19,628 nt of DNA from a virus (taxonomy: Duplodnaviria > Heunggongvirae > Uroviricota > Caudoviricetes), in IMG/VR virus record IMGVR_UViG_2711768070_000008, positions 1 to 19,628 of that record; one strand, 5' to 3'. The stretch's first letter is position 1. Each line of letters starts with the position of its first letter. Both the position numbers and the translations under genes were made by a program. Below, piece after piece: positions 1,952 through 19,628 of this stretch. The notes beneath the pieces are model-generated. The model worked only from the letters and a program-made list of their open reading frames with translations, was not told the origin of the DNA and ran no database searches.

Positions 1952-1952
1952 A

Positions 1953-2791: not shown

Positions 2792-2799
2792 TAATGAAT

Positions 2800-3019: not shown

Positions 3020-3604
3020 TCATTGGCGCACCTCCTGCGGCGGTTCTGGTAGCGGCATCCAGTCGGTTACATTGCGGCTCTGTGTTTCGAAAAATTCATC
3101 ACCATTACGGACTACATCAAAAAACTCACCGTCTCGATATTGCGCATAAAGAACGAATGCGCCATCACATAAAATAATTACGTGCTGACCATCATCCGGC
3201 ATTCGCTCACTACAGCTTATCCAACCATCCGGAGTTACCGGATAGTTGGTTGACGTTTCCGAGATTTCCCGAAAATTATTGGTTGACGAACCCTTATTTT
3301 CCCGAAAGTTTCCAGCCTGAAGCATGGCGGCGCTGTCTGGCGGGGCAGCATATAGCGGCACGTATATTTCCGGTTCCTTATCAGCACCGGGTTGCTCTTC
3401 CAGTGAGAATGTCTTTCCGGTAAATCGATTCATATAAAGCACGGGCTCTGCTTCCAGCGAAGCCTGAGCAACAAGGGCCAGTGCTAAATCCAACTCAATT
3501 GCCTCGAGAGAATTTTTGAATACTGTCTGTTTTACTGCAAATTTCATCGCCTTTACATTTTCACTAACATGACTGATTAACTGCTCTTTTGTAAAAGTGG
3601 TCAT
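3020..3604 (-). CDS. DUF551-like phage protein
   Basis: C-terminal DGWISCSERMPDDG...DWMPLPEPP motif typical of DUF551; start moved to ATG at 3604 (AAGGAG RBS) from the GTG at 3664. Confidence 0.7.
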   Translation of the reverse strand: MTTFTKEQLISHVSENVKAMKFAVKQTVFKNSLEAIELDLALALVAQASLEAEPVLYMNRFTGKTFSLEEQPGADKEPEIYVPLYAAPPDSAAMLQAGNFRENKGSSTNNFREISETSTNYPVTPDGWISCSERMPDDGQHVIILCDGAFVLYAQYRDGEFFDVVRNGDEFFETQSRNVTDWMPLPEPPQEVRQ

Positions 3605-3660
3605 CTCATTCTCCTTTGATGCGAATGCCAGCGACAATTGAAGCCTGATAGCTAATTCAC

Positions 3661-4056
3661 TCACAGTACCGCCTCCTGAAAATTGCCCTGATAGAACGCC
3701 AGTACACGCAGCATAACTTCACTCTTCCGGCACTCGCCACAGATTATGTTCTGTTGTCTGTCGTAGCGGCGTATTTCTCCGTCTGGTAACTTTCGAATCA
3801 ATGTCTGGTCGGTTGCTTTCTCCGCTGCCTTACGCCATACGCGATACACCTGTTCTGATGTAAAAACACCGTATTTACCGGGCATGTATAAATCGCCACA
3901 AGCCAGTACATCCACAAGGCAACGTCTGACTGAATGCCAGCCTGCTCCCGTCGCTCTCTCCAGTTGTGATATCGTCATGCGTTCATTTTTGCGTACCAGC
4001 CCGATAATTCGGGCCTTCAGTTCTTCACGCTGTTCGTGTGTAAAAGGTTTCGCCAT
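3661..4056 (-). CDS. Hypothetical phage early protein, 131 aa
   Basis: ATG at 4056 with GGAGG RBS; fits the gap between flanking same-strand genes; no recognised family. Confidence 0.55.
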   Translation of the reverse strand: MAKPFTHEQREELKARIIGLVRKNERMTISQLERATGAGWHSVRRCLVDVLACGDLYMPGKYGVFTSEQVYRVWRKAAEKATDQTLIRKLPDGEIRRYDRQQNIICGECRKSEVMLRVLAFYQGNFQEAVL

Positions 4057-4071
4057 AAGCGCCTCCGGCTA

Positions 4072-4842
4072 TCACTTTTCCGATACAACACGGCGGGAAG
4101 AATCAGTAATCTGTCGAACAATATCCCGGTGCTTGTTCAGCTCCCGCAGCGCGGCGCAGACTCGCTCCCACTTCTGAACATCACTTTTCGCCCTGCGCAG
4201 CGCCAGGTTTGCCCTGCGCAGGGACGGAAAAATCAGCTCATCTGCTTGCGTTTCGGTAAACGATAGCAACGGCTGCACAATGTCCGCCACAGTTTCTGTT
4301 TTAATTTCTTCCTGTGTTGCGGCTTCCCGGACTGGTAACGCAGCACCTGCTGGCTGAGGAAAGGCCTTACCATCATTTTTCGTTACCGGCGCGGCTTTCG
4401 GATCTGCTGGTAAATTACCCCCCGACATGCAGTAACGAAATTTACCGTTCTGATTAACGCGTGCCAGCCGCCCCGTTGCGGTTACCACCGCCAGCGTGGA
4501 AGCAACCTTGCGAGTACTGACGCCGAACTTACCCGCCAGTTCCTCACACGTTTTAGCACCATCCTGACCGATAAACTCAACCATCATGTCTGCGGTAACT
4601 TTTGGAGCGACCTCTTCGGTTACCACATCCGGCGCTTCAGGTTGTAGTGCCTGCCCTTCGGTTACCCCGGCTTCACCTTCGACAGCCAGAAACCAGGTGT
4701 GACCCGTTTTATCAACAACGCCATTTTTTTTGAGTTCCCACAGTTCGTTAAGAACTTCTTCACGGCTGATATCAAGCCGCGCCGCCAGTTCAACAGAATT
4801 GGCTTTTCCCATCGCTTTCAGTGCATGCAATACAGTTTCCAT
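4072..4842 (-). CDS. Hypothetical phage early protein, 256 aa (possibly DUF1627-like with N-terminal winged helix)
   Basis: Operon context; N-terminal segment looks like a wHTH, followed by a low-complexity Ala/Pro/Glu-rich linker; family assignment is tentative. Confidence 0.65.
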   Translation of the reverse strand: METVLHALKAMGKANSVELAARLDISREEVLNELWELKKNGVVDKTGHTWFLAVEGEAGVTEGQALQPEAPDVVTEEVAPKVTADMMVEFIGQDGAKTCEELAGKFGVSTRKVASTLAVVTATGRLARVNQNGKFRYCMSGGNLPADPKAAPVTKNDGKAFPQPAGAALPVREAATQEEIKTETVADIVQPLLSFTETQADELIFPSLRRANLALRRAKSDVQKWERVCAALRELNKHRDIVRQITDSSRRVVSEK

Positions 4843-4867
4843 CGAAAATTTACCTCGTCAAAAATTC

Positions 4868-5608
4868 TCACATACCCTGACATCCAACGTTTGACCGCCA
4901 GCTCTCCCAGTTAAAATTCACCCAACGACCACCATTCATGGTCATACGGTCCATCACCCGATCTCCGAGGAGTGTGCTCATCGCTGCGTGATTCAGGTTC
5001 GTCAGCATTCCGACACTACGCATCGAAGCCGTTCTGCGGTCGACTATCTGGTTCAGCGTGACCTGCTCGTTGCGCGTATCCCGCTGCATGCCAATTTCAT
5101 CAAGGACCAGAAGGTCAACTCCACAAAGCTCCTGTAAAAATTTTTCCCCGGACTGGCCGTTGTCGTAGCCGTCATGCAACACGCTCATGACATCGGACAC
5201 GGTGACGATAATCACGCTTCTCCCCTTCGCCATCAGCCGATTGCCAATCGCTGCTGCCAGGTGATTTTTACCGGTACCAGGTTTACCGCTGAACACGAAG
5301 TTTGTACATCCGGTCATCAATTCATCGGCAATGGATTTCGCCTGGCTCAGAGCATGGCGCTGACCGTCGTTCTGCACCCGGTAGTTCCCGAATGAGCACT
5401 TCCTGTGAAGCGGCTGGATGCCCGCACGGTTCAGGATTTTTTCAACCCGCACCTGATGATTCAGGCGGTTAATCTCCTCGCTGCGTTTTCGTCCTTCAGC
5501 AAGTTGCCATTCCCGCCACTCCTCCACCGTCCGGTACGGTGGAACCGCCCCCTGTGGTGCAAGTCTGCGAATACGTTCAAGAACCCCAACTGCCGCAATG
5601 TTTTTCAT
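4868..5608 (-). CDS. DnaC/IstB-like AAA+ replication protein (helicase loader; Rac YdaV-like)
   Basis: Walker A GKPGTGKNHLAAAIG and Walker B LLVLDEIG; immediately downstream of the O-like gene. Confidence 0.9.
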   Translation of the reverse strand: MKNIAAVGVLERIRRLAPQGAVPPYRTVEEWREWQLAEGRKRSEEINRLNHQVRVEKILNRAGIQPLHRKCSFGNYRVQNDGQRHALSQAKSIADELMTGCTNFVFSGKPGTGKNHLAAAIGNRLMAKGRSVIIVTVSDVMSVLHDGYDNGQSGEKFLQELCGVDLLVLDEIGMQRDTRNEQVTLNQIVDRRTASMRSVGMLTNLNHAAMSTLLGDRVMDRMTMNGGRWVNFNWESWRSNVGCQGM

Positions 5609-5614
5609 GACACG

Positions 5615-6577
5615 TCACCCCCTGAATCCCGGCGGTATTTCAGTGTCCGGTTCAGAAATGTGATTCACGCAACGCTGCGCAGGCGAACGCCCCAGGCGGA
5701 TAACCAGTTCATCCCATTTTTCCCGGAGTTTTGCCGGACTCATGATGTTTTTTACCCAGAACGAATCCCGCTGGAGACGCCCAAACATTTCACAAATTTG
5801 TCTGTGAGTTCTGCCATCCAGCATCCGCATTGTGCGAACGTCATTGGCCCATGCTGTCCAGTTGGGTTCTTTCGGTCTAGTGATCTCGCCATCATAGCTG
5901 GCCGCCTGCTCGTAAAGACTCACGATTCGTCCCCAGATCCACTGTGCGCACACCAAATCTTCCTGACTTCCCCACTGGCGTTTTTTCGCACTGAACACAA
6001 CCGCGTCAGGGTGTCGGGTTAAAAAATCCTGTTCAGCCGTCTGCGGGTCCGGTTGCGAAGCGTCCGGACAAGAAGATCTTTTATCTGACGGATCAGGTTT
6101 TAATACTGACGGATCGGGGTCAATCATCGCCCCCCTAATCGGCAGTTTTTTATCAACAGTTGATCCATCAAAATTTGACGGGTCAACCGTTGAGGGGGCA
6201 ATATTTGACGGGTCAACTGTTAACTGGTCATTTTTTGCCGGGCTAATTTTTCTTTTCGGTTTATATGACTCACGCGCCGCCGCAGCTGCTGCTTCGAGTT
6301 TTTCCACATTAAGCCGATAGATATTGCTTACATTACGCCCACCGACCTTACGCTCTTCCTTCGTCAGCCAGCCCTCTTTCGCCAGTTCTGCAATAGCCGA
6401 TTTCACTGTGGATTCACTTCTTGCACCGATCTGACGCCGGATAGTTTCAATGGCAGGCCATGACACACCCTCGTCATTGCTGTAGTCTGCAAGACGGGCC
6501 ATAACCGCCACCCTGGATAAGATCATGCCGGTGAAGGCGCACCCTTCCCAGACAAGACCATGAAGCTTGCTGCTCAT
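5615..6577 (-). CDS. Replication initiator with lambda O-like architecture (Rac YdaU-like)
   Basis: N-terminal domain, then a repeat-containing linker (TVDPSN x2, DPDPS/KPDPSD) encoded by DNA iterons, then a C-terminal domain; start placed at ATG 6577 rather than GTG 6592. Confidence 0.75.
   Translation of the reverse strand: MSSKLHGLVWEGCAFTGMILSRVAVMARLADYSNDEGVSWPAIETIRRQIGARSESTVKSAIAELAKEGWLTKEERKVGGRNVSNIYRLNVEKLEAAAAAARESYKPKRKISPAKNDQLTVDPSNIAPSTVDPSNFDGSTVDKKLPIRGAMIDPDPSVLKPDPSDKRSSCPDASQPDPQTAEQDFLTRHPDAVVFSAKKRQWGSQEDLVCAQWIWGRIVSLYEQAASYDGEITRPKEPNWTAWANDVRTMRMLDGRTHRQICEMFGRLQRDSFWVKNIMSPAKLREKWDELVIRLGRSPAQRCVNHISEPDTEIPPGFRG
6085..6223. repeat. Iteron array (YTGACGGRTC-type direct repeats), putative prophage replication origin inside the O-like gene
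   Basis: CTGACGGATC at 6085 and 6106; TTGACGGGTCAAC at 6175 and 6205; palindrome ATCAACAGTTGAT at 6152-6164; adjacent AT-rich tract 6229-6272. Confidence 0.65.
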
Positions 6578-6599
6578 AAAACCCCCGAACACCGTGCTT

Positions 6600-7025
6600 T
6601 TAGTGCATCACCACAGCATTCCCTGCCGGGCCGCCGCGATTCATCTGGTCATACAAAACAACCGCTGACGCAACAAAATCGTCGACATCCTTCACCAGCC
6701 GATCCCGCCGTTCGACAATCTCCCGGTAATACTCAGAGCTGTGACTGCGCATACGGGCTACCAGCAGAGGCGGCATTGCCTTTTCGATCGCCGGTAACAG
6801 AGCCTGAATTTTTTCAACAGCATCAGGGGTGTCTTTATCCAGCCAACGGAAAATTTTCTGTGTATTACGGGCCAGGGCTTCCGGATGGCTGTCGTCGTAC
6901 AGTTCAGGGAACGTCATCCCCAGTTCGAAATAAGTCCGGGCTATTTCAGCTGCAGGAACTTTCTCACCATCAGGGTATGCCCAGGCATTCATCGCCATGC
7001 GGATGTGCTCATGTTTGATTTTCAT
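6600..7025 (-). CDS. YdaT-like protein (Rac-type, CII-position regulator/toxin family)
   Basis: 141 aa; N-terminus MKIKHEHI... as recalled for Rac YdaT; overlaps the cro-like gene by 17 nt. Confidence 0.7.
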   Translation of the reverse strand: MKIKHEHIRMAMNAWAYPDGEKVPAAEIARTYFELGMTFPELYDDSHPEALARNTQKIFRWLDKDTPDAVEKIQALLPAIEKAMPPLLVARMRSHSSEYYREIVERRDRLVKDVDDFVASAVVLYDQMNRGGPAGNAVVMH

Positions 7026-7332
7026 GAATCATTTGCCTCTTGATGCTTCGGGTATGATCGTTTTCGTCATTTGGTTGCTTCATCGACATATTCTGCGAAT
7101 AACATGACGAGCGTCGTAAGTATGTCCAATCAACATCAGGACGAAGTTCTTCACACAGGACACCACCTTTTGTTGCTCGTTCAATCGCAGGACATCTCTC
7201 AGCAGGCAACTGACGTACACCTTTGATCCATTGATTTACGCTTGGAGGAGATACACCTAAAAGCCTAGCCATTGCTGATTGCCCACCGACAACAGCACAA
7301 GCTCGTTTGAATGAATAGTTATCTTTTTTCAT
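7009..7332 (-). CDS. Cro-like HTH regulator (YdaS-like)
   Basis: Start at ATG 7332 (GGAG RBS) rather than track start 7353; HTH region ...QSAMARLLGVSPPSVNQWIKG...; divergent from the repressor gene. Confidence 0.75.
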   Translation of the reverse strand: MKKDNYSFKRACAVVGGQSAMARLLGVSPPSVNQWIKGVRQLPAERCPAIERATKGGVLCEELRPDVDWTYLRRSSCYSQNMSMKQPNDENDHTRSIKRQMIHENQT

Positions 7333-7359
7333 CGAATGAACTCCAAAAAACACGCAACA

Positions 7360-7427
7360 ATATTAGGCTTAGCCTAATACAATTATCAATAGGCTATGCC
7401 TAACACATCGAGAGTAGGGATTGCCTA
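7360..7427. promoter_or_regulatory. Right operator/promoter region: three TAGGC-N3-GCCTA operators overlapping a leftward promoter
   Basis: Operators at 7364-7376, 7390-7402 and 7415-7427 (25-26 bp centre to centre); minus-strand -35 TTGATA (7389..7384) and -10 TAATAT (7365..7360) with an 18-bp spacer. Confidence 0.6.
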
Positions 7428-7456
7428 ACGCGATGCGCATAGGAGACTATTAAGCA

Positions 7457-7933
7457 ATGCTTAGTGGTAAAGACTTAGGCCGAGCGATAGAGCAGGCCAT
7501 TAACAAAAAAATTGCATCAGGAGCCGTCAAATCAAAGGCGGAAATCGCACGTCATTTCAAAGTCCAACCACCATCAATCCATGACTGGATTAAGAAAGGT
7601 TCGATAAGTAAAGACAAACTTCCAGAACTATGGCGTTTCTTTTCTGATGTGGTTGGTCCAGAGCATTGGGGGCTTAACGAATACCCCATACCAACCCCAT
7701 CCACTTCAGATACAAAAAGTGAACTTTTAGACATAAACAGCCTTTATCAAGCCGCCTCTGATGAAAAAAGAGCAATTGTGGCTTTCCTCTTATCTGGAAA
7801 TGCTACGGAGCCTAGTTGGGTTGATCATGACGTTCGCGCCTACATTGCCGCAATGGAAATGAAGGTAGCTAACTATCTGAAAAATCAAGAATCAAAACGG
7901 AAAAGCCAGAACATCACCAAGACAGGAACTTAA
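7457..7933 (+). CDS. Prophage repressor (CI-equivalent; RacR-like)
   Basis: 158 aa; N-terminal HTH (SKAEIARHFKVQPPSIHDWIK); AGGAG RBS; flanked on both sides by operator clusters. Confidence 0.8.
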   Translation: MLSGKDLGRAIEQAINKKIASGAVKSKAEIARHFKVQPPSIHDWIKKGSISKDKLPELWRFFSDVVGPEHWGLNEYPIPTPSTSDTKSELLDINSLYQAASDEKRAIVAFLLSGNATEPSWVDHDVRAYIAAMEMKVANYLKNQESKRKSQNITKTGT

Positions 7934-8028
7934 ACTTATATGGTCCGACGGGAAATTCCTAGTTCCCGTTAGTTAACTCCTACTACCTCTCCCACAAACC
8001 ATCACCTATTAGGTCGCGCCCAAATTAT

Positions 8029-8070
8029 TAGGCATAGCCTATTGACAAGTAATTAGGCATTTCCTATAGT
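8029..8070 (+). promoter_or_regulatory. Left operator/promoter (PL-equivalent): sigma70 promoter overlapped by operators
   Basis: TTGACA (8042-8047), 17-bp spacer, TATAGT (8065-8070); operators TAGGCATAGCCTA (8029-8041) and TAGGCATTTCCTA (8054-8066). Confidence 0.65.
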
Positions 8071-8251
8071 TTTCCCATACCAACCCATCCCGTCCCACAC
8101 AATACAGGGCAATACCTCGAGTTACCAGGCAGTGGTCAGGGGTTAAGTAGCCAGCCCGAGGCGTAAGAACATGACGGCAGGGTTCAACTTTAATAACTAT
8201 GCAGCAGGTTTTTGTTCCGCTACCCCGGCGTTAAGGGGAAATGAGGTCAGC

Positions 8252-8404
8252 ATGGATACTATCGATCTTGGCAACAGCGAATCTCTGGTATGTGGCGTGT
8301 TCCCCAACCAGGACGGTACGTTCACCGCGATGACGTATACCAAAAGCAAAACGTTTAAAACTGAAGCTGGCGCGCGTCGCTGGTTAACCAGAAACACTGA
8401 CTGA
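8252..8404 (+). CDS. DUF1391 small protein (YdfA/YdaF-like), 50 aa
   Basis: Internal ATG at 8252 with GAGG RBS; first gene after the PL-like promoter; family assignment from memory. Confidence 0.6.
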   Translation: MDTIDLGNSESLVCGVFPNQDGTFTAMTYTKSKTFKTEAGARRWLTRNTD

Positions 8405-8415
8405 TGAGGTTGACG

Positions 8416-8790
8416 ATGGAATTTAAAGATTTACCAGTACCATTCCAGGAAATGGCATCGAATGTGGTTCGCTCTCAACTGGCGACTCTTGACCTGAGTA
8501 CCGTAGAAAAAGAAACCATCGATACTATATCCGGTAACGTGCGTCGTGCCTTTATCGGTCTGTACGAAGAGAAGCAGCTCTCTGATAACCAGGATTTACA
8601 TGAAAAATACTTCATGGAATTAATGGACATCATTAATAAAGGATTTGGCTTGTTAATGAAAAAGAAAGGGATTCGAATAGCTCCCCTTGAAAATCATTTT
8701 ACAGCGAGCAGTATTAATTCCTGTGATTTAAAGCATCACACATCCGATGGGAAAGTTGAATCAAACAACAAAATATCAATTAATCATTAA
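8416..8790 (+). CDS. Hypothetical protein, 124 aa
   Basis: ATG 8416 with GAGG RBS (start 8404 also possible); in the position of ydfB/ydfC upstream of dicF. Confidence 0.55.
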   Translation: MEFKDLPVPFQEMASNVVRSQLATLDLSTVEKETIDTISGNVRRAFIGLYEEKQLSDNQDLHEKYFMELMDIINKGFGLLMKKKGIRIAPLENHFTASSINSCDLKHHTSDGKVESNNKISINH

Positions 8791-9094
8791 TTTATTCACA
8801 GGTGAGGTAGAGTGCGTGCGCCGGACACGGATAAGAATCCGGCACTGACAGTTTACTGAAAAGGATATATCCCTGAAAAGTCAGGGCATAACACGAAAGC
8901 GCCCGGCGAAGTTAGTCTCTCTGTATAGGTCGTCGTTAAATTTAATTCGATCGTGCGCTTCCGGTTGTGGCAATCCGCGAAATGGCGCGGCGGTAAGTAT
9001 GGCGGGGTTATTCCTTCCCCGTTGAGGACACCGGGTTGTCAGGTTGACCATACGCTTAAGTGACAACCCCGCTGCAACGCCCTCTGTTATCAAT

Positions 9095-9147
9095 TTTCTG
9101 GTGACGTTTGGCGGTATCAGTTTTACTCCGTGACTGCTCTGCCGCCC
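9095..9147 (+). ncRNA. dicF: DicF small RNA (ftsZ-targeting), 53 nt, with terminator U-tail to 9152
   Basis: Sequence TTTCTGGTGACGTTTGGCGGTATCAGTTTTACTCCGTGACTGCTCTGCCGCCC matches the DicF sequence as recalled; GGCGG...GCCGCC stem then TTTTT; directly upstream of dicB. Confidence 0.7.
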
Positions 9148-9321
9148 TTTTTAAAGTGAATTTTGTGATGCGGTGAATGCGGCTGAGCGCACGCGGAACA
9201 GTTAAAACCAAAAACAGTGTTATGGGTGGATTCTCTGTATCCGGCGTTAATTGTTAACTGGTTAACGTCACCTGGAGGCACCAGGCACCGCATCACAAAA
9301 TTCATTGTTGAGGACGCGATA

Positions 9322-9510
9322 ATGGAAACGTTATTACCAAACGTTAATACGTCTGAAGGTTGTTTTGAAATTGGTGTCACTATCAGTAACCCTGTATTTA
9401 CTGAAGATGCCATTAACAAGAGAAAACACGAACGGGAGCTATTAAATAAAATATGCATTCTTTCAATGCTGGCCCGTTTACGTCCGATACAAAAAGGATG
9501 CTGGCAATGA
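9322..9510 (+). CDS. dicB: Cell division inhibitor DicB, 62 aa
   Basis: METLLPNVNTSEGCFEIGVTISNPVFTEDAINKRK... recognised as DicB; GAGGA RBS; track ORF 9217..9510 is an N-terminal over-extension. Confidence 0.8.
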   Translation: METLLPNVNTSEGCFEIGVTISNPVFTEDAINKRKHERELLNKICILSMLARLRPIQKGCWQ

Positions 9511-9698
9511 ATACAGCATTTGCACTTGTTCTGACAGTTTTTCTTGTTTCCGGAGAGCCAGTTGATATTGCAGTCAGCGTTCACAGGACAATGCAGGAGT
9601 GTGTGACTGCAGCAACCGAACAGAAAATTCCCGGTAACTGTTACCCGGTCGATAAAGTTATTCACCAGGATAATATCGAAATCCCGGCAGGTCTTTAA
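9507..9698 (+). CDS. ydfD: YdfD-like small protein with hydrophobic N-terminal segment, 63 aa
   Basis: ATGA overlap with the dicB stop; AAGGA RBS; N-terminus MNTAFALVLTVFLVSG. Confidence 0.6.
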   Translation: MNTAFALVLTVFLVSGEPVDIAVSVHRTMQECVTAATEQKIPGNCYPVDKVIHQDNIEIPAGL

Positions 9699-9790
9699 AA
9701 CAGTTCCGTAATAAACATCCGATTTCATTCTTATATGCCAGCAATGGCAGGGATTTGTTCACCCTTAAATCTGTAATGAGGTAAAACAAA

Positions 9791-12262
9791 ATGAGTAAAG
9801 TCTTTATTTGCGCCGCCATTCCGGACGAACAGGCAATAAAGGAAGAAGGTGCAGTCGCTGTAGCCACTGCCATTGAAGCTGGCGACGAACGCCGTGCTCG
9901 AGCAAAATTTCACTGGCAGTTCCTGGAACATTATCCGGCTGCTCAGGACTGCGCTTATAAATTTATTGTCTGCGAGGATAAACCTGGCATACCCCGCCCT
10001 GCCCTCGATTCATGGGATGCTGAATATATGCAGGAAAACCGCTGGGATGAGGAGTCTGCTTCTTTTGTCCCGGTTGAGACTGAATCCGATCCGATGAACG
10101 TCACTTTTGACAAGCTGGCCCCTGAAGTACAGAACGCTGTCATGGTTAAGTTCGACACATGTGAAAACATCACCGTTGATATGGTGATTAGCGCACAGGA
10201 ATTGTTGCAGGAAGACATGGCAACATTCGACGGACATATCGTTGAAGCGTTGATGAAAATGCCAGAAGTTAACGCCATGTATCCGGAGCTTAAGCTGCAT
10301 GCCATCGGGTGGGTTAAGCATAAATGTAAGCCTGGTGCCAAATGGCCCGAAATTCAGGCAGAGATGCGCATCTGGAAAAAACGTCGCGAAGGTGAACGCA
10401 AGGAAACCGGAAAATACACGTCTGTTGTTGATCTCGCCCGCGCCAGAGTCAATCAACAGCACACTGAAAATTCAACAGGAAAAATCAGCCTGGTCATTGC
10501 TGCCATTCATCGCGAATACAAGCAGACATGGAAAACACTGGATGACGAACTGGCCTACGCTCTCTGGCCTGGTGATGTGGATGCCGGAAACATTGACGGC
10601 AGCATCCATCGCTGGGCAAAAAATGAAGTTATCGACAACGACCGCGAAGACTGGAAGCGTATCTCGGCATCAATGCGCAAACAGCCTGATGCCCTTCGCT
10701 ACGACCGCCAGACTATTTTTGGCCTTGTCCGTGAACGTCCGATCGACATTCACAAAGACCCTGTGGCACTGAACAAATACATTACTGAATACCTGACTAC
10801 AAAGGGCGTGTTTGAAGATGAAGGAACAAATCAGAGCGCAACTGATACTCTCTCGTCGTCAGTACCAGAAACTGATGCAGTGGAAACGGCAATTCCGGAC
10901 AACGAAAAAACCGAATGCAAAGTGGAAGTCGAACCATCTGTAGAGCGTGAGGGGCCGTTCTACTTCCTCTTCACCGACAAGGATGGCGAAAAATACGGTC
11001 GCGCAAACAAACTTTCTGGTCTGGATAAGGCACTGGCTGCCGGGGCTACTGAAATCACGAAAGAAGAATATTTCGCCCGCAAAAACAGTACATACTCAGG
11101 TTCACAACAAAATACTGGTGCATCTGACACGACCGCACAACCAGAGCCGGTAAAAGTTACCGCTGACGAAGTAAACAAAATTATGCAGGCAGCCAATATC
11201 AGCCAGCCTGACGCCGATAAGTTGCTTGCTGCCTCTCGCGGAGAATTTGTTGCAGGGATTAGCGACCCGAATGATCCGAAATGGGTTAAGGGGATCCAGA
11301 CCCGCGATTCTGTAAACCAGAACCAGCATGAATCGGAACGGAACTACCAAAAAGCGGAACAAAACAGCCCAAATGCGTTACAAAACGAGCCAGAAACGAA
11401 ACAGCCTGAACCAGTGGCGCAACAGGAAGTGGAAAAAGTCTGCACCGCCTGCGGTCAGACCGGCGGCGGCAACTGCCCTGATTGTGGCGCAGTGATGGGC
11501 GACGCAACATACCAGGAAACATTCGATGAAGAGTATCAGGTTGAAGTTCAGGAAGATGATCCGGAGAAAATGGAAGGCGCTGAACATCCACACAAGGAGA
11601 ACACTGGCGGCAATCAGCATCACGATAGCGATAATGAAACTGGCGAGACGGCAGATCACTCAATTAAGGTGAACGGTCATCAAGAAATCACATCCACCAG
11701 CAGGACGTGTGACCATCTAATGATCGACCTTGAAACCATGGGAAAAAATCCTGATGCCCCGATCATCTCAATAGGTGCAATATTTTTCGATCCGCAAACC
11801 GGAGATATGGGACCGGAATTTAGTAAGACTATCGATCTGGAAACTGCTGGCGGAGTCATTGATCGGGACACCATTAAATGGTGGCTTAAGCAATCACGCG
11901 AAGCGCAATCTGCCATTATGACCGATGAAATCCCGTTAGATGATGCACTGTTACAATTGCGGGAATTTATCGACGAAAACTCCGGTGAATTTTTTGTTCA
12001 GGTCTGGGGAAATGGAGCCAACTTCGACAACACGATTTTGCGCCGTTCATACGAACGGCAGGGGATCCCCTGCCCGTGGCGTTACTACAACGATCGCGAT
12101 GTACGCACAATCGTTGAGCTGGGGAAAGCCATAGACTTCGATGCCAGAACGGCTATTCCATTCGAAGGTGAGCGCCATAATGCACTTGATGACGCCCGTT
12201 ACCAGGCAAAATACGTTTCAGTTATCTGGCAAAAACTGATCCCGAGTCAGGCTGATTTTTAA
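9791..12262 (+). CDS. Large prophage exonuclease, 823 aa: RecE-like central segment, CxxC-x8-CxxC zinc ribbon, C-terminal DnaQ-like DEDDh 3'-5' exonuclease domain
   Basis: GAGGT RBS; segment [31 protein letters not shown] recalled from Rac RecE; C-terminal motifs [16 protein letters not shown] and HNALDDA; [16 protein letters not shown]. Confidence 0.8.
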
Positions 12263-12320
12263 TGTTCAACCCTAATTGCCGCTAACCGTATATAGTTAGC
12301 GGCGGTTATGAGATATAGCT

Positions 12321-12524
12321 ATGAGCAACTTATTTTTAACCGAAGATGAATTGCTAATATTAACGGGCTGCAAATATGCAAGCCACCAGCGAAAATGGTT
12401 AACGGAAAACGGGCTTCCGTTCTATACCAATCGTAGTGGCAAACCGATTGTCAGCCGGGATCTATTTACCTGCAATAAAACTTTACCACCACGCGAGGTA
12501 GAGCCGAATTTTGGTGCAATCTAA
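12321..12524 (+). CDS. xis: Excisionase-like protein (Xis)
   Basis: 67 aa, immediately upstream of int with a 1-nt overlap; resembles small phage excisionases. Confidence 0.6.
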   Translation: MSNLFLTEDELLILTGCKYASHQRKWLTENGLPFYTNRSGKPIVSRDLFTCNKTLPPREVEPNFGAI

Positions 12525-13549
12525 TGGGAAGACGAAGGAAAAATCCTGAACACGAAAAACTACCTCCAAATGTATACCCAAATAAATATAGTTATGTATG
12601 GAAACCAACATCCAGAGAATCTGTCACACTAACCGCCATCAAGGATGGTTTAGCTGCTTTATGGAAAAAGTATGAGGAAACTGTAAATAATCGCGATCGT
12701 GCAATGACATTCGGTCGCTTGTGGGAAAAATTCCTCGCCAGCGCCTATTACAGTGACCTCAGTCCAAGAACACAAAAAGATTATCTGCAACATCAAAAAA
12801 AGTTGCTTGCCGTATTCGGTAAGGTGCCGGCAGATTCCATAAAACCAGAACACATCCGTCGATACATGGACAAGAGAGGGGAACAGAGTAAAACGCAAGC
12901 CAACCATGAAAAAAGCAGTATGTCCCGCGTTTACAGTTGGGGGTATGAGCGAGGGTACGTGAAGGCTAACCCATGTGCAGGTGTAAGTAAATTCAAGGCC
13001 AAAAACCGCGAACGATATGTAACCGACAAAGAATACCAGGCAGTATTAAGCGTTGCACCTCTTCCTGTTTTTATCGCAATGGAAATTGCCTATCTGTGTG
13101 CAGCGAGGGTTTCCGATGTGTTATCGCTGAAATGGGAGCAGATTGGAAACGACGGAATCTTTATCCAGCAAGGGAAAACAGGAAAAAAACAGATAAAAGC
13201 ATGGAGTCCACGATTACAGGCGGCGATCGAAAAAGCAAAACAGTTACCAACATCCGCCTATGTAATCAGTAATCAATACGGCAACCGATATATGTACAAA
13301 GGCTTTAACGAAATGTGGGTAGAAGCAAGAAATCGCGCAGGCAAAATTTCAGGTATTTTAACCGACTTCACCTTTCATGATCTGAAGGCGAAAGGAATTT
13401 CAGACTATGAAGGAAGCAGTCGGGATAAGCAACTTTTCTCTGGTCACAAAACCGAGGGGCAAGTGCTAATCTATGACAGGAAGGTTAAAGTTTCACCGAC
13501 ACTTGATGTCCCGTTACCTGAAAATATTCCAAGAAAATATTCCAAGTAA
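12524..13549 (+). CDS. int: Lambda-family tyrosine integrase
   Basis: 341 aa; C-terminal catalytic region with R...HDLKAKG...Y (LIYDRK); ends 52 bp from the tRNA-Ser 3' end. Confidence 0.9.
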   Translation: MGRRRKNPEHEKLPPNVYPNKYSYVWKPTSRESVTLTAIKDGLAALWKKYEETVNNRDRAMTFGRLWEKFLASAYYSDLSPRTQKDYLQHQKKLLAVFGKVPADSIKPEHIRRYMDKRGEQSKTQANHEKSSMSRVYSWGYERGYVKANPCAGVSKFKAKNRERYVTDKEYQAVLSVAPLPVFIAMEIAYLCAARVSDVLSLKWEQIGNDGIFIQQGKTGKKQIKAWSPRLQAAIEKAKQLPTSAYVISNQYGNRYMYKGFNEMWVEARNRAGKISGILTDFTFHDLKAKGISDYEGSSRDKQLFSGHKTEGQVLIYDRKVKVSPTLDVPLPENIPRKYSK

Positions 13550-13601
13550 TTCCAAGTGTGATTTTTGTCACTGACTTAATGATGTATAAGTGATTGAATT
13601 T

Positions 13602-13691
13602 TGGCGGAGAGAGGGGGATTTGAACCCCCGGTGGAGTTGCCCCCACTCCGGTTTTCGAGACCGGTCCGTTCAGCCGCTCCGGCATCTCTCC
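13602..13691 (-). tRNA. serU: tRNA-Ser (anticodon CGA)
   Basis: 90 nt; GGAGAGA acceptor stem, long variable arm, GGTTCAAATCC T-loop, CCA end; anticodon loop CU-CGA-AA. Confidence 0.9.
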
Positions 13692-13784
13692 GTTCAGATG
13701 GTTGCCATGATGCCAGGAAATTTGGCATTTTAACAGTCCCTGTCCGTGCAATTTTGTTCAAGTGACGAGTTTGCGAGCAAAACG

Positions 13785-14582
13785 ATGATTAAGTGGCCCT
13801 GGAAAGTACAAGAATCAGCACATCAAACTGCCCTTCCCTGGCAGGAAGCACTATCGATCCCCCTTTTAACGGGTCTGACGGAACAGGAACAAAGCAAATT
13901 AGTCACTCTTGCCGAACGTTTTTTACAGCAAAAGCGGCTTGTTCCTTTACAGGGCTTTGAACTGGATTCATTAAGAAGCTGCCGGATAGCACTTCTATTT
14001 TGCCTACCCGTTCTGGAGTTAGGACTGGAATGGCTGGATGGTTTTCATGAAGTCTTAATTTATCCTGCGCCATTTGTGGTCGATGATGAATGGGAAGACG
14101 ATATCGGTCTGGTGCATAACCAACGTATTGTTCAGTCAGGTCAGAGCTGGCAGCAAGGGCCTATCGTTTTGAACTGGTTGGATATACAAGATTCTTTTGA
14201 TGCATCTGGTTTTAACCTGATTATTCATGAAGTCGCTCATAAGCTGGACACCCGTAACGGCGATCGCGCCAGCGGAGTTCCCTTTATTTCGTTGCGTGAG
14301 GTTGCTGGCTGGGAACACGATCTTCATGCTGCAATGAACAACATTCAGGAAGAAATCGAATTAGTTGGTGAGAATGCGGCGAGCATTGATGCTTATGCTG
14401 CCAGTGATCCTGCTGAATGTTTTGCCGTACTTTCTGAATATTTCTTTAGCGCCCCAGAACTTTTTGCTCCTCGTTTCCCTTCATTGTGGCAACATTTCTG
14501 TCAATTTTATCAACAAGATCCTTTGCAGAGACTGCATCACGCTAATGATACAGACTCGTTTTCGGCGACGAATGTTCATTAA
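13785..14582 (+). CDS. mtfA: MtfA (Mlc titration factor A) zinc-dependent peptidase
   Basis: Recognised sequence beginning [10 protein letters not shown]; HEVAHK zinc-binding motif; track ORF 13746 start is an over-extension. Confidence 0.9.
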
Positions 14583-14682: not shown

Positions 14683-14758
14683 TCCTCTGTAGTTCAGTCG
14701 GTAGAACGGCGGACTGTTAATCCGTATGTCACTGGTTCGAGTCCAGTCAGAGGAGCCA
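14683..14758 (+). tRNA. asnT: tRNA-Asn (anticodon GTT)
   Basis: 76 nt canonical E. coli tRNA-Asn sequence; the asnT name comes only from its position next to mtfA. Confidence 0.95.
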
Positions 14759-14938: not shown

Positions 14939-16213
14939 ATGTCACTGACTGATATTAAAGCAAAAAATGCAAAACCCCTTGAGAAGGAATACAAGCTTAC
15001 TGATGGCTTTGGTATGTTCCTTCGTGTTACCCCTAAAGGTTCGAAATACTGGCAAATGGCTTACCGCTTCGAAGGGAAACAAAAACTCTTCTCTATTGGT
15101 GTTTACCCTGCAGTTTCTCTTTCTGACGCAAGACAACGCCGTGACGAGGCCAGAAGGCTTCTGGCTCAGGGTATTGACCCTAATGCAAAGAAACAGGCAG
15201 AGGTTAAAGAGCTTAAAGCCAAACGTGATAATACACGCTCCTTCAGAACAGTAGCCAAAGCGTGGTTCTCCACGAAAACAAAATGGTCTGATGATTATGG
15301 CGATGCCGTATGGAAGCGCCTTGAAACTTATGTCTTCCCGGTAATCGGTGACAAAGATGTTGCCGAACTGGATACGGGTGATCTGCTGGTTCCGGTGAAA
15401 AAAGTTGAGGCTCTTGGTTATCTTGAAGTTGCCATGCGCATTCAACAATACATTACGGCAATCCTGCGTCATGCCGTCCAGCAAAAGCTGATACGCCATA
15501 ACCCAGCCTATGATATGGAAGGTGCAGTTCAGAAACCACAAACTGAACACCGCCCTGCACTTGAGCTGGAAGAAATACCCCAGCTACTGAACAAAATTGC
15601 CGAATACAAAGGCCGCAGGTTAACCATACTGGCAATACAGCTCAATCTGATGATTTTCATTCGTTCCAGTGAGCTTCGTTTCGCTCGCTGGTCTGAAATT
15701 GATTTCAAAAGTAAGTTATGGGTGATACCCGAACAGCGTGAAGCAATTGAAAACGTCAAACATTCGACTCGTGGTGCCAAAATGAAGCGTAAGCACTTCG
15801 TTCCCCTTTGTAAGCAAGCTATGAGGATACTAAAAGAGATCCGACAACTGACTTATGAAGAAGGCCATGATGATGGATTAATCTTCACTGGCTGTTATGA
15901 CTCGTTTAAACCCATGAGTGAAAACACCATCAACAAAGCCCTGCGTAATATGGGATATAACACGAAGCAGGACATCTGTGGACACGGTTTCCGCACTCTG
16001 GCCTGTAGTGCCTTAATTGAGTCCGGGCTATGGTCAGAAGACGCTGTAGAGCTTCAAATGAGCCATAAGGAAAGCAACAGCGTCCGTGCTGCTTATACCC
16101 ACAAGGCTAAACACCTTGATCAACGCCGTCTGATGCTCCAATGGTGGGCTGACTACCTTGATGCAAGCAGAAACGGTATGGTAAGGCCGTTTGAGTTTGC
16201 TTCAAATAAATAA
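14939..16213 (+). CDS. int: P4-type tyrosine integrase
   Basis: 424 aa; N-terminus MSLTDIKAKNAKP...YKLTDGFGMFLRVTPKGSKYW typical of P4-like integrases; C-terminal HGFRTL...Y catalytic motifs; GAGGGGG RBS. Confidence 0.9.
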   Translation: MSLTDIKAKNAKPLEKEYKLTDGFGMFLRVTPKGSKYWQMAYRFEGKQKLFSIGVYPAVSLSDARQRRDEARRLLAQGIDPNAKKQAEVKELKAKRDNTRSFRTVAKAWFSTKTKWSDDYGDAVWKRLETYVFPVIGDKDVAELDTGDLLVPVKKVEALGYLEVAMRIQQYITAILRHAVQQKLIRHNPAYDMEGAVQKPQTEHRPALELEEIPQLLNKIAEYKGRRLTILAIQLNLMIFIRSSELRFARWSEIDFKSKLWVIPEQREAIENVKHSTRGAKMKRKHFVPLCKQAMRILKEIRQLTYEEGHDDGLIFTGCYDSFKPMSENTINKALRNMGYNTKQDICGHGFRTLACSALIESGLWSEDAVELQMSHKESNSVRAAYTHKAKHLDQRRLMLQWWADYLDASRNGMVRPFEFASNK

Positions 16214-16216
16214 AGG

Positions 16217-16238
16217 GAAAGGCCGTTCGCGGCCTTTC
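16217..16238. terminator. Hairpin between convergent int and orphan gene (possible bidirectional terminator)
   Basis: GAAAGGCCG-TTCG-CGGCCTTTC. Confidence 0.5.
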
Positions 16239-16259
16239 AACTTCATGCTTAATTACACT

Positions 16260-17651
16260 CTATGCTGAATATGATACTGAATCTTTCTCTATCACTAAAC
16301 CAGCGATTTTTTCCAGCATTATTTCCCAGAGTGCGTATTTTCTTTTGTGCTCAATAAACAGGGATTTTAAATACTCTTCTGTAGAAGGGATTTTTTCAGT
16401 CCATGTAATATCTTTACTGTAATCAATGCTTTTTTTCATATCAGATGCTGCATAGGTGTAGTATTTACTCTGAGAACGACTGATACTGTCCTCTGCCAGA
16501 ACTCTACGGAGCAGAGTTGCAGAACATGCATAACCATGCCTGTAAAGTTCACTCGATAAAGTACGAACAAAAGAACCGCGTAATAAAGACATCATCTCTG
16601 CGATTTCATTTTCACTCGCATTCATGACTTCAGAATCAAGTTTTCCATAACTATCCGTCCCGGACAAGAAAAGAATAACAAACGGAAAGCCTTTGTTCTT
16701 TGCTATGCCAGAGAACAAATCCAGTGAGTCATTATTTTTCTCTACCCGATTATAGATATTATAAAAAATAACATCACACCTGTTCTTAAATCCGTCTATA
16801 CAAATTGTTTTTGCCTGCTGAATCTCGCCTTCTTCAATCAACGCCAGAGCCAACACCTCAGTCCATTTATCACGAAGCCCTGCCTGATCAACTGATTTAT
16901 CTTCTTTGATTTTATTGAGAACCTGAATGGCTTCCTCAGTGCACAGTTCATCAACCAGCAACTCAGCAAACTTAATGATGTATTCTGGCTGGTTCAGTTT
17001 TCTTTTCTCAAAGCATTGCCTGATGAAATCAACATCCCTGATATACAGACTTAACTCAACAGCATAATTAACATTACCTGTCTTAAGAAGACTTTCCCTT
17101 AAAGCACGAATAACATTGTATCCAAGCTCTTTTTTATACTTATCAAAAATATCAAAGTTAAAATATACATCACCTTTAAGCACGGAAAGTATTTTATCCG
17201 CTATAACATCAATGCTTTTATCTTTTTGTAGGGACAGGGATTTTAACCATGTTTCGACAGCACCATTATAATAGTCCATCCATGATCCATCTGATGTATC
17301 AGCAATTTCGCTGATTTTATCAAATGAGAGCAGTAAATCATGGCAAAACGCCTCGGTTTTTTCAGGCAGCGTTGATACCGTCTTTTCAAGTGGAAATATG
17401 ACATTCCTGTATAGCCCCTCAAAAAAAACCGCTGCTTCATAATAATCATAAAAGCGTTTTGTTTTAATTACCCTTTTGTATTCAGCCTCAGCCTTTTTCA
17501 GTGATTCTTCTGGAGTTAACAGATATTTATTAATAATAAAGGATTTTGCCTGACCATTATTCTCTGCAATATCACAAATTATTTGCATGAGTTGATCGGC
17601 AGGCATTTCCTTGAGTAAAGCAAGTTGTTTCTTGTTCAGTTTAGCCATCAT
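16260..17651 (-). CDS. Orphan protein of unknown function (~463 aa; 484 aa from the farthest ATG), AT-rich, predicted largely helical
   Basis: Long ORF with no recognisable catalytic motifs; start placed at ATG 17651 or 17648 (AGGA upstream) rather than 17714 (no RBS); divergent from the mod gene. Confidence 0.7.
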   Translation of the reverse strand: MMAKLNKKQLALLKEMPADQLMQIICDIAENNGQAKSFIINKYLLTPEESLKKAEAEYKRVIKTKRFYDYYEAAVFFEGLYRNVIFPLEKTVSTLPEKTEAFCHDLLLSFDKISEIADTSDGSWMDYYNGAVETWLKSLSLQKDKSIDVIADKILSVLKGDVYFNFDIFDKYKKELGYNVIRALRESLLKTGNVNYAVELSLYIRDVDFIRQCFEKRKLNQPEYIIKFAELLVDELCTEEAIQVLNKIKEDKSVDQAGLRDKWTEVLALALIEEGEIQQAKTICIDGFKNRCDVIFYNIYNRVEKNNDSLDLFSGIAKNKGFPFVILFLSGTDSYGKLDSEVMNASENEIAEMMSLLRGSFVRTLSSELYRHGYACSATLLRRVLAEDSISRSQSKYYTYAASDMKKSIDYSKDITWTEKIPSTEEYLKSLFIEHKRKYALWEIMLEKIAGLVIEKDSVSYSA

Positions 17652-17842
17652 CACATCCTGATAATGTTTGGTAGACGCATAAAAGCTAATTGTACTAATA
17701 CAAGGACAGGACATTCAATAAATGCATTAACATAATGATTTAAAAAGAAATCTGTAGCACACTGTTCATTGATGAAATGCACTATTTACCGTAAAATATC
17801 CCCCATCACACAGTAACCTGATACAGATACGTGGAATGGTCA

Positions 17843-19573
17843 ATGAACAAACTTTCGCCTGAAATGCCCGAACTGCAATCAATGAATATCACTGCCGATA
17901 ACATCACCAAACTTAAATCATTGTTTCCTGAAGCCTTTAATGAAAACGGCATTGATTTTGACGTTTTAAAACAGCTTTTGGGTGAAAATGTAGACGAAAA
18001 AGAAGAACGCTATGGCCTGAACTGGCATGGTAAGCGTCAGGCTCGTCAGCTTGCTCTTACCCCTTCCCGTGGCACCTTACGCCCATGTAAAGATGAAAGC
18101 GTTGATTGGGATAACACCAAGAACCTCATGATCGAGGGTGATAACCTTGAAGTATTGAAGCTTCTTCAAAAAAGTTATGCCGGAAAAGTTAAGCTTATTT
18201 ATATTGATCCACCTTACAATACCGGTAAAGATTTTGTTTATTCTGATAACTTCCAAGATAACATGAAAAATTATCTTGAAATGACAGGACAAACAGAAGA
18301 TGGGGTACGAATCACCACAAACGCAGAAACCAGTGGACGTTACCATACTGATTGGTTAAATATGATTTACCCACGTTTAAAACTTGCAAGAAACTTGTTG
18401 AAAGAAGATGGAGTTATTTTCATTTCCATTGATGATGCTGAAGTTGATAATTTAAAAAAAGTTTGCTCGGAAATCTTTGGTGAAGAGAACTTTGTTGCTA
18501 ATATTGTATGGCAAAAAAAATACTCACCACAAAATGATGCCACATATTTTAGTGATATGCATGATCATATTTTAGTATATGCAAAGCAACGGAAGAATTC
18601 AAAAAATGATTCAAATGGTTGGAACATAGATTTTCTACCAAGATCAGACGAACAAAATGCAGCGTATAAAAACCCCGACAATGACCCTCGTGGAGTTTGG
18701 AAGTCTGTAGATTTATCAGTCAAAACTTATTCCAAGGCTAATGATTACTCAATTACCACACCATCAGGACGTATTGTAACTCCTCCCGCCAGTAGATGCT
18801 GGCAGGTTTCTGAAAAACGTTTTGCAGAATTGTGTAAAGAAAATAAAATTTGGTTTGGAGAAAATGGTAATAATGTTCCATCAATCAAAAGATTCCTGAC
18901 TGAGGTCCAAGATGGTGTTGTTCCTACAACATGGTGGTCATATAAAGAATGTGGCCATAATCAAGAGGCCAAACAGGAACTAAAAAAACTCATGGAGGGA
19001 GAATCTGTATTCTTTGACACGCCTAAACCATTGAGATTATTAGATAGAATATTACATTTAGCAACAACCAATGATAAAAATAGTATTATCCTAGATTTTT
19101 TCGCTGGGTCAGGTACCACGGCTCACGCAACTTTGAATAAAAATATTGCTGACAGTGGTTCACGCCGATATATTGCTGTGCAATTACCTGAAAAAATAGA
19201 TGATGAAAAATACCATACAATATCAGAACTAACCAAAGAACGCCTCCGCCGCGCGGGTAAAAAGGTTCGTGAAGACAATCCAGAGTGGAAAGGTGACGTT
19301 GGTTTTCGTGTTTTCAAACTCGATACATCTAATATCCGTCCGTGGGAAGCCACAGCAGAAACCCTTTCAGAACAGATTGATGCCTATGTAAGCCCAATCC
19401 TTGAAGGCCGTAGTGAAGAAGATTTGCTCACAGAGTTAATGCTAAAGCGTGGCATTGACTTGAGTGTTAACATTGAAACCCGTCAGTTTGATGGATTAAC
19501 CGTTTCTTGTGTTGACGGTGGCAAATTGTTTACCTGCTTTGCTAAGGAAGGTGCGAACAAGTTCCTGATATGA
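17843..19573 (+). CDS. mod: Type III restriction-modification methyltransferase (Mod), N6-adenine, beta class
   Basis: Motif IV IYIDPPYNTGKDF precedes motif I DFFAGSGTTAHA; ATG 17843 preferred over the GTG at 17831. Confidence 0.85.
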   Translation: MNKLSPEMPELQSMNITADNITKLKSLFPEAFNENGIDFDVLKQLLGENVDEKEERYGLNWHGKRQARQLALTPSRGTLRPCKDESVDWDNTKNLMIEGDNLEVLKLLQKSYAGKVKLIYIDPPYNTGKDFVYSDNFQDNMKNYLEMTGQTEDGVRITTNAETSGRYHTDWLNMIYPRLKLARNLLKEDGVIFISIDDAEVDNLKKVCSEIFGEENFVANIVWQKKYSPQNDATYFSDMHDHILVYAKQRKNSKNDSNGWNIDFLPRSDEQNAAYKNPDNDPRGVWKSVDLSVKTYSKANDYSITTPSGRIVTPPASRCWQVSEKRFAELCKENKIWFGENGNNVPSIKRFLTEVQDGVVPTTWWSYKECGHNQEAKQELKKLMEGESVFFDTPKPLRLLDRILHLATTNDKNSIILDFFAGSGTTAHATLNKNIADSGSRRYIAVQLPEKIDDEKYHTISELTKERLRRAGKKVREDNPEWKGDVGFRVFKLDTSNIRPWEATAETLSEQIDAYVSPILEGRSEEDLLTELMLKRGIDLSVNIETRQFDGLTVSCVDGGKLFTCFAKEGANKFLI

Positions 19574-19603
19574 GATCATCATATTCATCCGGAGCGCATC
19601 CCA

Positions 19604-19628
19604 GAGGGACATCATGAGCCATCAACTC
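19604..19628 (+). CDS. Possible start of Type III restriction subunit (Res), first 8 codons only
   Basis: ATG 30 nt after the mod stop with GAGGGA RBS; expected mod-res order; far too short to confirm. Confidence 0.3.

Follow-up and report, generated by a model that had tools for sequence, protein, structure and literature searches.

What does the gene between the integrase and the restriction-modification (RM) genes of an enterobacterial tRNA-Asn island do, and does it belong with its RM neighbours? We addressed this question in a window of 19,628 nt (the whole stretch of DNA that was analysed; IMG/VR record IMGVR_UViG_2711768070_000008). There, the initial annotation had placed an orphan protein between a P4-type integrase and a type III RM module, and had suggested that it might be an anti-phage or RM-accessory gene. 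We found that the gene is spnT (16260..17648, minus strand), of the DUF6880 family, and we conclude that it is a conserved backbone gene of the island that borders a swappable RM cargo slot. The identities of the gene, the family and the island are near certain. As to its role, the reading that we favour, tentatively and with less than even confidence, has SpnT bind proteins as an adaptor and thereby modulate the RecA and replication-restart response of the host to DNA breaks or stalled forks.

The open reading frame (ORF) is uninterrupted from 16260 to 17714 on the minus strand and counts 484 codons from the first ATG, at 17714, as far as which it is left open upstream. The ~463-484 aa frame reported by the initial annotation is thus real and intact, but its start had to be corrected. 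Translation almost certainly begins at the ATG at 17648, which gives a protein of 462 aa (53 kDa, isoelectric point, pI, of 5.4) beginning with MAKLNKKQ. We placed the start there because homologues begin at this position with M[AS]KLN.KQ, because the RefSeq coding sequence of a 99.9%-identical E. coli locus is 1389 nt long, and because an AGGA lies 8 nt upstream. In addition, a sigma-70-like site upstream of 17648 (TTGAAT-18-TACAAT, 17718-17689, minus strand, from a consensus scan) would sit within the longer ORF, and NCBI holds the exact 462-aa sequence, as an E. coli hypothetical protein. The stretch between 17648 and the ATG at 17714 is probably untranslated.

This exact match and the existence of named homologues show that the protein is not an orphan. 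It also matches Pfam DUF6880 (PF21810) above the gathering cut-off (46.7 bits against 27.3 bits, E=3e-12). The PF21810 alignment is good over only the C-terminal 73 residues of the window protein; the same family is matched by 66/66 diverse full-length relatives (best E=3.9e-155). SpnT is in the single-domain size range of DUF6880 (~440-480 aa) and is co-linear over its full length with relatives of 436-482 aa. It is 98-100% identical to SpnT of E. coli, Klebsiella and Enterobacter, and its cluster at 90% identity has 3,549 members, those listed being from Klebsiella, Enterobacter, Raoultella, Serratia and E. coli, with several labelled 'SpnT protein'. The initial annotation had held that a confident match to a known housekeeping or characterised family would argue against a new function; the family is indeed a named one, but it is without an established mechanism.

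The gene is present in 104 of the 5,426 complete E. coli genomes, on the chromosome in all of them, and some of the E. coli copies are labelled 'SpnT protein' or 'DUF6880 family protein'. The DUF6880/SpnT family is small, with 460 cluster representatives at E<=1e-3 among 1.84 billion proteins, and all the members that we examined are on or beside mobile DNA, i.e. islands, Tn3-family transposons and plasmids. A search of phage genomes gave no match to the family, and scans of NCBIfam, PADLOC-DB 2.0 (0 families at E<=1) and PHROGs gave nothing meaningful for SpnT. Apparent fusions of DUF6880 to other domains were rejected as uninformative: P0053 is a transposon-junction chimera of a Tn3 transposase and a DUF6880 tail, P0148 is a low-complexity artefact and P0145 a probable chimera.

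The island is of the EARL (Enterobacteriaceae-associated ROD21-like) or ICEKp258.2 type and is inserted at a tRNA-Asn of E. coli. The window shows the traits of this type: insertion at tRNA-Asn (GTT; 14683..14758, plus strand, detected by ARAGORN), which is the integration site on the attL side; an adjacent P4-type tyrosine integrase of 424 aa (14939..16213, plus strand; Arm-DNA-bind_3 5e-28, Phage_int_M 5e-25, Phage_integrase 7e-21); and a GC content of 0.35-0.42 over 16001-19500, compared with ~0.50 in the core genes that lie to its left. The other traits of the type, an AlpA-type RDF, type IV pilus, TraD and relaxase genes and a far-end direct repeat, would fall beyond the window. The window thus confirms the layout that had been read from the letters, namely an AT-rich, integrase-proximal gene in a tRNA-Asn island that diverges from a type III mod. 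In the E. coli matches the annotated tRNA-Asn is followed by the integrase, and the order tRNA-Asn, int, spnT, mod is found in 103 of the 104 spnT-bearing complete genomes. The integrase next to spnT is 98-100% identical in most related loci. In the closest genome, a near-identical E. coli island (L001), RefSeq annotates 'site-specific DNA-methyltransferase' and then 'type III restriction-modification system endonuclease', and the island continues past this res with pilV, a type IV pilin, TraD and a MobQ relaxase.

The same arrangement has been described before. In ICEKp258.2 of K. pneumoniae ST258, the tRNA-Asn is followed by an integrase of 424 aa (ORF1), a 'hypothetical protein (SpnT)' of 462 aa, a methyltransferase, a helicase-like Res of 986 aa and pilus genes (PMC10763509). 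The EARL (ROD21-like) family shares this architecture, and SpnT and type III RM were co-acquired in one of its subclades (PMC6035254). The SpnT of ICEKp258.2 and that of E. coli 4972 are the same gene as ours, of 462 aa, between the 424-aa integrase at tRNA-Asn and a divergent mod-res pair, and beyond this pair ICEKp258.2-type islands have type IV pilus, TraD and relaxase genes. Databases and papers thus already had the gene, its family and this kind of island, and likewise the occurrence of SpnT together with type III RM.

We then compared the neighbourhoods of spnT homologues in 37 genome loci and 77 metagenome loci, plus plasmid and assembly loci. Neighbourhoods were scored by tblastn and ORF clustering, and they fall into three groups: clade A (SpnT at least 55% identical), clade B (37-45%) and clade C (less than 37%). 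In clade A, which is of the EARL type, nearly every locus with enough flanking sequence has a divergent mod 233-244 bp upstream of spnT (tblastn spacing), followed by res. This spnT-mod-res block occurs on at least three different backbones, since it is found with the 98-100% identical integrase, with a different integrase that is only 27% identical (L059, L063), and, in Salmonella (L044), with no integrase next to it. The loci L059 and L063 indicate that the block is exchanged modularly between island backbones. Within clade A, mod is 52-100% identical and res 92-99% identical, except in L082 (76%), among L002, L005 and L053-L083. Such a variable mod on a constant Res fits with an exchange of target-recognition domains that would give new specificities.

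The occupant of the slot also changes. In Tenebrionibacter (L004; SpnT 97%, integrase 98%), a type I hsdM-hsdS-hsdR operon is found in the place of mod-res (L004 2975-9557). The 55% identical relative (L049/L050) lies in an EARL island with spnT between a pilin gene and the integrase and no RM, and three more lineages (L047, L051 and L006/L078) have spnT in degraded or RM-free settings. The same slot thus holds type III RM, type I RM or nothing, beside spnT-integrase pairs that are 97-99% identical and beside the 55% relative. The linkage with RM that the initial annotation had proposed to look for is therefore present in most clade-A loci, but it is broken in the RM-free loci, and the loci of clades B and C are without type III RM. 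As a separate observation, L059 and L063 are metagenome contigs in which SpnT is 98-99% identical and the 27%-identical tyrosine integrase lies 428 bp downstream.

The window itself shows that spnT can stay when its neighbour decays. Its mod (17843..19545, plus strand; Pfam N6_N4_Mtase 7e-38) is truncated at the 3' end: ~567 native codons are left, compared with the 628 of the most similar uninterrupted copy in E. coli, so that the last ~60 codons are lost. What follows is the left end of an ISKpn26-like insertion sequence (IS) of the IS5 family (19546..19628, plus strand), preceded by the target CTAA, and the window ends inside it. The E. coli matches to the island all end at 19540-19545, and from 19546 onward, 1,842 E. 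coli genomes have IS5-like ISKpn26 copies whose ends match the sequence at 99%. This interruption distinguishes the window from its ICEKp258.2-type relatives. It also means that the type III RM module announced by the initial annotation is reduced here to a broken mod, res being outside the window. Type III Res requires Mod for target recognition. Because Res needs Mod, and mod is cut by the IS, the RM system of this strain is probably inactive, while spnT is intact.

These patterns bear directly on the possibility that SpnT is an accessory of the RM systems. It would directly control the neighbouring restriction enzyme, for instance by restraining the R subunit, a superfamily 2 (SF2) helicase (Res or HsdR), on unmodified host DNA until the element has become established, by analogy with restriction-alleviation or establishment factors such as lambda Ral and Rac Lar, or with C-proteins. 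The divergent mod at a conserved 233-244 bp on several backbones speaks for such a role, as does the report that one EARL subclade gained SpnT and type III RM together (PMC6035254), and so does the position of hsdMSR directly upstream of spnT and in the same direction, in clade A (L004) and independently in clade B (L010). We nevertheless consider it unlikely: spnT is kept in lineages without any RM (L049/L050, L047, L051, L006/L078), it is kept here although mod is disrupted, and a single partner for type I and type III enzymes would require a hypothetical shared target.

Clade B, to which we assign the Serratia TnTIR-type genes on the basis of Serratia and plasmid homologues, gives a different view of the family. 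Its hosts are Serratia, Photorhabdus, Arsenophonus, Sodalis, Mixta and Symbiopectobacterium, and plasmids carry it too, in Vibrio anguillarum (pJM1), Klebsiella, Citrobacter, Yersinia and Shewanella. SpnT of the TnTIR or pJM1 type belongs to the same Pfam family and is co-linear with the window protein over its full length (~40% identity, 461-466 aa). Yet its gene follows tnpA-tnpR and is coupled to recX, and it lacks both a type III RM partner and a tyrosine integrase. The stop of spnT overlaps the start of recX by 4 nt (ATGA), e.g. at L007 10001-11832 and at L039 (pJM1) 4962-6787. The second gene encodes a RecX homologue of 144 aa (Pfam RecX_HTH3 6e-16, plus HTH1 and HTH2; 'regulatory protein RecX' in RefSeq), which is 37% identical to E. 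coli RecX. The pairing is found in ~30 loci, with or without Tn3 genes. Clade-B spnT usually lies downstream of Tn3-family tnpA-tnpR, the pair being without them on Shewanella pSbal02, and in 2/4 of the genome loci that have no recX an IS lies immediately downstream of spnT (L014, L017). With this overlap, spnT and recX are translationally coupled and form a conserved two-gene module. In the literature searched, we found no account of a transposon-borne RecX copy.

RecX is an inhibitor of RecA filament extension, and its gene is the operon partner of clade-B spnT, yet the two proteins are not homologous. We had considered that SpnT might itself be RecX-like, which would explain some database labels, and rejected this (hhalign probability 0.8%, no Pfam RecX match). 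DUF6880 proteins such as P0013 and the plasmid match H30 (CP032835.1) are labelled 'regulatory protein RecX' in GenBank or UniRef. These are mislabels, probably carried over from the neighbouring gene.

RM genes appear near clade-B spnT too, in another form. Type III RM was never found at clade-B loci. An RM or bacteriophage exclusion (BREX) system is near spnT in 4/24 non-redundant contexts, three of them with type I RM (within 8 kb: L010; L088/L098/L102; pSbal02) and one with BREX. In Morganella (L010 3881-9829), hsdMSR lies directly upstream of spnT in the same direction, 170 bp away, with a second hsdM pair on the downstream side. Identity among the clade-B type I systems, and between these and the one of L004, is only 22-45%, which is why we regard these associations as independent. 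The hsdM-hsdS-hsdR operons of L004 and L010, both directly upstream of spnT and co-directional with it, share 22-25% identity. A Pfam census covered 136 non-redundant neighbours and, transposases aside, found type I RM families most often. These are raw counts, and the enrichment is suggestive only. For an RM accessory, the further independent type I systems near clade-B genes are a point in favour. However, 20/24 clade-B contexts have no RM or BREX within 8 kb, and where RM is present its position and orientation relative to spnT vary (compare L088 with L098).

The coupling to RecX could instead indicate counter-defence or anti-SOS cargo. SpnT, together with RecX in clade B, would then shield the incoming element by blocking host immunity or a DNA-damage pathway, the candidate targets being RecA activation, RecBCD or a RecA-dependent trigger, in a manner comparable to the functions of PsiB or ArdA type in the leading regions of plasmids. 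The co-translation with a RecA inhibitor is what one would expect of such cargo, and so is the restriction of the family to mobile DNA or its borders, in regions rich in toxin-antitoxin (TA), WYL/DUF262, BREX and RM genes. Its fold, which looks like a non-enzymatic scaffold (see below), is typical of inhibitors and adaptors. Yet the family is absent from phage genomes, where anti-defence genes abound, SpnT has no similarity to known anti-restriction or anti-SOS proteins, and 53 kDa is large for a simple inhibitor. We therefore hold this alternative to be quite improbable, with the caveat that it overlaps strongly with the adaptor reading and that computation cannot separate the two.

If SpnT is an adaptor, as we favour, it would share the job with the co-translated RecX homologue in clade B; EARL-type SpnT would do it unaided, with a promoter and a terminator of its own. 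Neither the window nor the reference island of 37 kb gave a match to recX, tnpR or tnpA. The spnT-mod intergenic region is divergent, AT-rich and 194 bp long (17649..17842; promoter scan and sequence), with repeats that are short and unremarkable. It has no significant LexA box, a single site with one mismatch being found near mod, and LexA-like sites across the whole window are not more numerous than expected by chance. At the other end, the stops of int (16213) and spnT (16260) converge on a terminator region (16171..16238, terminator scan), where a GC-rich hairpin (16217-16238) is followed by a T-run on the minus strand. This hairpin, a match to the consensus only, would terminate the spnT transcript, and the gene looks monocistronic.

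The distant members of clade C are found on plasmids of Acetobacteraceae and Piscirickettsia, in Rickettsiales and Holosporales endosymbionts, on an Aeromonas plasmid and in freshwater metagenome-assembled genomes (MAGs). They have no universal partner gene, and their neighbours include TA systems, WYL, NUDIX and DUF262 genes, and IS elements. In freshwater and alphaproteobacterial MAG contigs (L029-L036, L112-L125; L031 3286-6066), the DUF6880 gene has a gene for an aminoglycoside-phosphotransferase (APH)-family kinase upstream and one for a TspO/MBR membrane protein downstream. The reading frames overlap on both sides, and GNAT, APH(6) and RibD_C genes are nearby.

The predicted structure of SpnT is compatible with an adaptor. 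An AlphaFold2 model built on 20 homologues (pLDDT 89.2, pTM 0.73) has 28 helices and a C-terminal beta hairpin. The structure prediction suggested by the initial annotation thus gave a confident model, though not one with an effector fold: in the model, SpnT is an all-alpha solenoid resembling tetratricopeptide repeat (TPR) and pentatricopeptide repeat (PPR) proteins, with no enzyme, NTPase or helix-turn-helix (HTH) fold. The broad family profile matched only designed PPR/TPR proteins in the PDB, over residues ~205-290, and the close-clade profile gave no match in the PDB sequence search. This likeness, in structure and in profile, is confined to the central part of the protein. The global TM-score against TPR/PPR scaffolds (Cdc27, PilF, MamA, designed PPRs) is at most 0.31. 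The window SpnT has no Pfam TPR match, and among the 66 relatives weak matches occur to TPR_19 in six and to TPR_14 in four. Overall, we describe it as a soluble acidic protein (no transmembrane segment was found in it) whose central part holds a pair of TPR/PPR-like repeats and whose C-terminal ~100 residues are basic and highly conserved (pI 8.95 for residues 356-463).

Two conserved regions have no counterpart in TPR/PPR scaffolds: an N-terminal loop, 'D-x-S-x-G-x-W', and the basic C-terminal part, 'SKYYxYAxSD...HKRKxxxW'. Near-invariant across the family are D118, S120 and G122 in the former and R383, Y398, H435, K438 and W442 in the latter, while D206, R363, S395, Y397 and D404 are conserved in 79-88% of the 66 sequences. 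We read these conserved residues as a binding surface.

Searches for other domains were negative. We found no enzymatic, NTPase or HTH domain in SpnT with Pfam, NCBIfam, PADLOC, PHROGs, PDB sequence and fold searches, which bears out the earlier impression of a protein without Walker, nuclease, methylase or HTH motifs. Nor is there homology to Mod (N6_N4_Mtase) or to Res (ResIII, helicase or endonuclease), and domain scans, the model and the fold search revealed no nuclease, TIR, Sir2, protease or membrane effector domain. It is here that a stand-alone anti-phage protein, or the sensor of an undescribed defence system, has to be weighed. Defence genes cluster in regions such as this one, integrase-proximal, AT-rich and beside RM, and the plasmid copies from Aeromonas and Klebsiella have surroundings that resemble those of defence genes. 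But a single gene that matches no PADLOC model, lacks all of the effector domains just listed and has no conserved effector partner across clades is very unlikely to work in this way, the sole conserved partner being RecX, which is not an effector. Of what the initial annotation proposed, the RM linkage holds for most clade-A loci without being obligatory, whereas nothing supports a stand-alone anti-phage effector.

Phenotypes of spnT have also been published. Over-expression of spnT in E. coli is said to yield filaments, abnormal nucleoids and more DNA, 'possibly through the PriA pathway', according to Wei 2006 as quoted in PMC11064533. The same paper relates, among the effects it summarises, that over-expression in S. 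marcescens lowers sliding motility and prodigiosin. In E. coli 4972, SpnT was detected in the proteome and the deletion of spnT is viable (PMC11064533); viability in a strain that has the island pilV may be a further point against an RM accessory. Clumps of the mutant showed increased tolerance to ampicillin and decreased survival to gentamicin, and spnT expression differed between adherent and planktonic cells (PMC11064533). In K. pneumoniae, meropenem and imipenem induced spnT by at least 2.5 log2 (PMC10763509).

The original proposal, made in Serratia, was that SpnT regulates host physiology, i.e. motility, pigment and biosurfactant production, aggregation and antibiotic tolerance, through protein contacts. 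The effects on motility and prodigiosin as summarised for S. marcescens, the altered antibiotic survival in clumps of the 4972 mutant and the differential expression in adherent cells are all in line with it, and one Serratia homologue is labelled 'transcriptional regulator'. SpnT has no HTH or other DNA-binding domain, however, and replication or division stress could lie behind these pleiotropic phenotypes. In the deletion mutant there was also an extra mutation, upstream of nemR (PMC11064533). Finally, a physiological regulator leaves both the coupling to RecX and the restriction of the family to mobile DNA unexplained. We give this proposal very little credence.

We infer an adaptor role because several observations converge: SpnT is a non-enzymatic-looking helical scaffold, its family is found only with mobile DNA, it neighbours an RM slot, it is coupled to RecX in one clade, and its published phenotype concerns replication and division. 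As an adaptor, SpnT would bind proteins, and its target would be the response of the host to DNA breaks and troubled replication forks, i.e. the axis formed by RecA and PriA-dependent replication restart. The host would thereby tolerate the incoming mobile element and the DNA damage that it brings, which would help the element to establish itself. One source of damage may be self-restriction by the RM cassette in the adjacent slot. SpnT would then be a backbone or establishment gene of the island that flanks an RM hotspot, and neither an anti-phage effector nor a subunit of the type III enzyme.

Several points weigh against this interpretation. Filamentation upon over-expression is a non-specific phenotype. 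The physical partner of SpnT is hypothetical, and the invariant polar residues (D118, S120, G122, R383, Y398, H435, K438, W442) could form an undetected catalytic site. The EARL clade lacks recX in 37 kb of island, and therefore the link to RecX has to be transferred across ~40% identity. The distant members lie in unrelated contexts, such as the APH-DUF6880-TspO arrangement, and the enrichment in RM neighbours may not exceed the mobile-element background. The link to PriA is second-hand, taken from its citation in PMC11064533, and the phenotypes of the 4972 deletion are not obviously related to recombination (PMC11064533).

A broader version of the adaptor interpretation is that SpnT, with or without RecX, is an unrecognised module for establishment or restriction tolerance, in which a TPR-like adaptor would re-tune the RecA-PriA response. 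With such a module, a naive host might survive when type I or type III restriction cassettes in the adjacent slot arrive or are lost. We regard both the module and this consequence as quite improbable at present. If SpnT does manage restriction-linked DNA damage or RecA and replication restart, this would explain how RM cassettes can be freely swapped beside it, why Tn3-family transposons carry a copy of RecX and why over-expression is toxic. The gene matters in any case because it is among the few conserved non-transfer genes of its island family. ICEKp258.2, which belongs to this family, marks the epidemic lineage ST258 of carbapenem-resistant K. pneumoniae. In the papers accessible to us, we did not find the TPR/PPR-like model, the swapping of the RM slot (type III, type I or empty), an IS-disrupted mod next to an intact spnT, or the clade-B spnT-recX operon with independent type I and BREX neighbours. 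Our finding is a pointer to a known gene of unknown function and not a discovery; it sharpens the hypotheses without establishing the function.

The remainder of the window concerns the insertion site and a second element. The island lies at the tRNA-Asn copy beside mtfA (Peptidase_M90/MtfA in Pfam; 13746-14582, upstream of the tRNA), which we take to be asnT from the K-12 gene order, whereas in strain FDAARGOS_1248 it lies at the copy beside nac. Positions 1-13691 are the early region of a lambdoid prophage at tRNA-Ser(CGA) (13602-13691); together with the asn-tRNA island, two integrative elements therefore flank mtfA. The prophage encodes RusA, DUF968/HNH, DUF551, DUF977 and DUF1627 proteins, a DnaC-like ATPase, an HTH_36 replication protein and YdaT. 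Its integrase gene is at 12524-13549, preceded by a gene for an 823-aa protein (9791-12262) with a C-terminal Rv2179c-like 3'-5' exoribonuclease domain.

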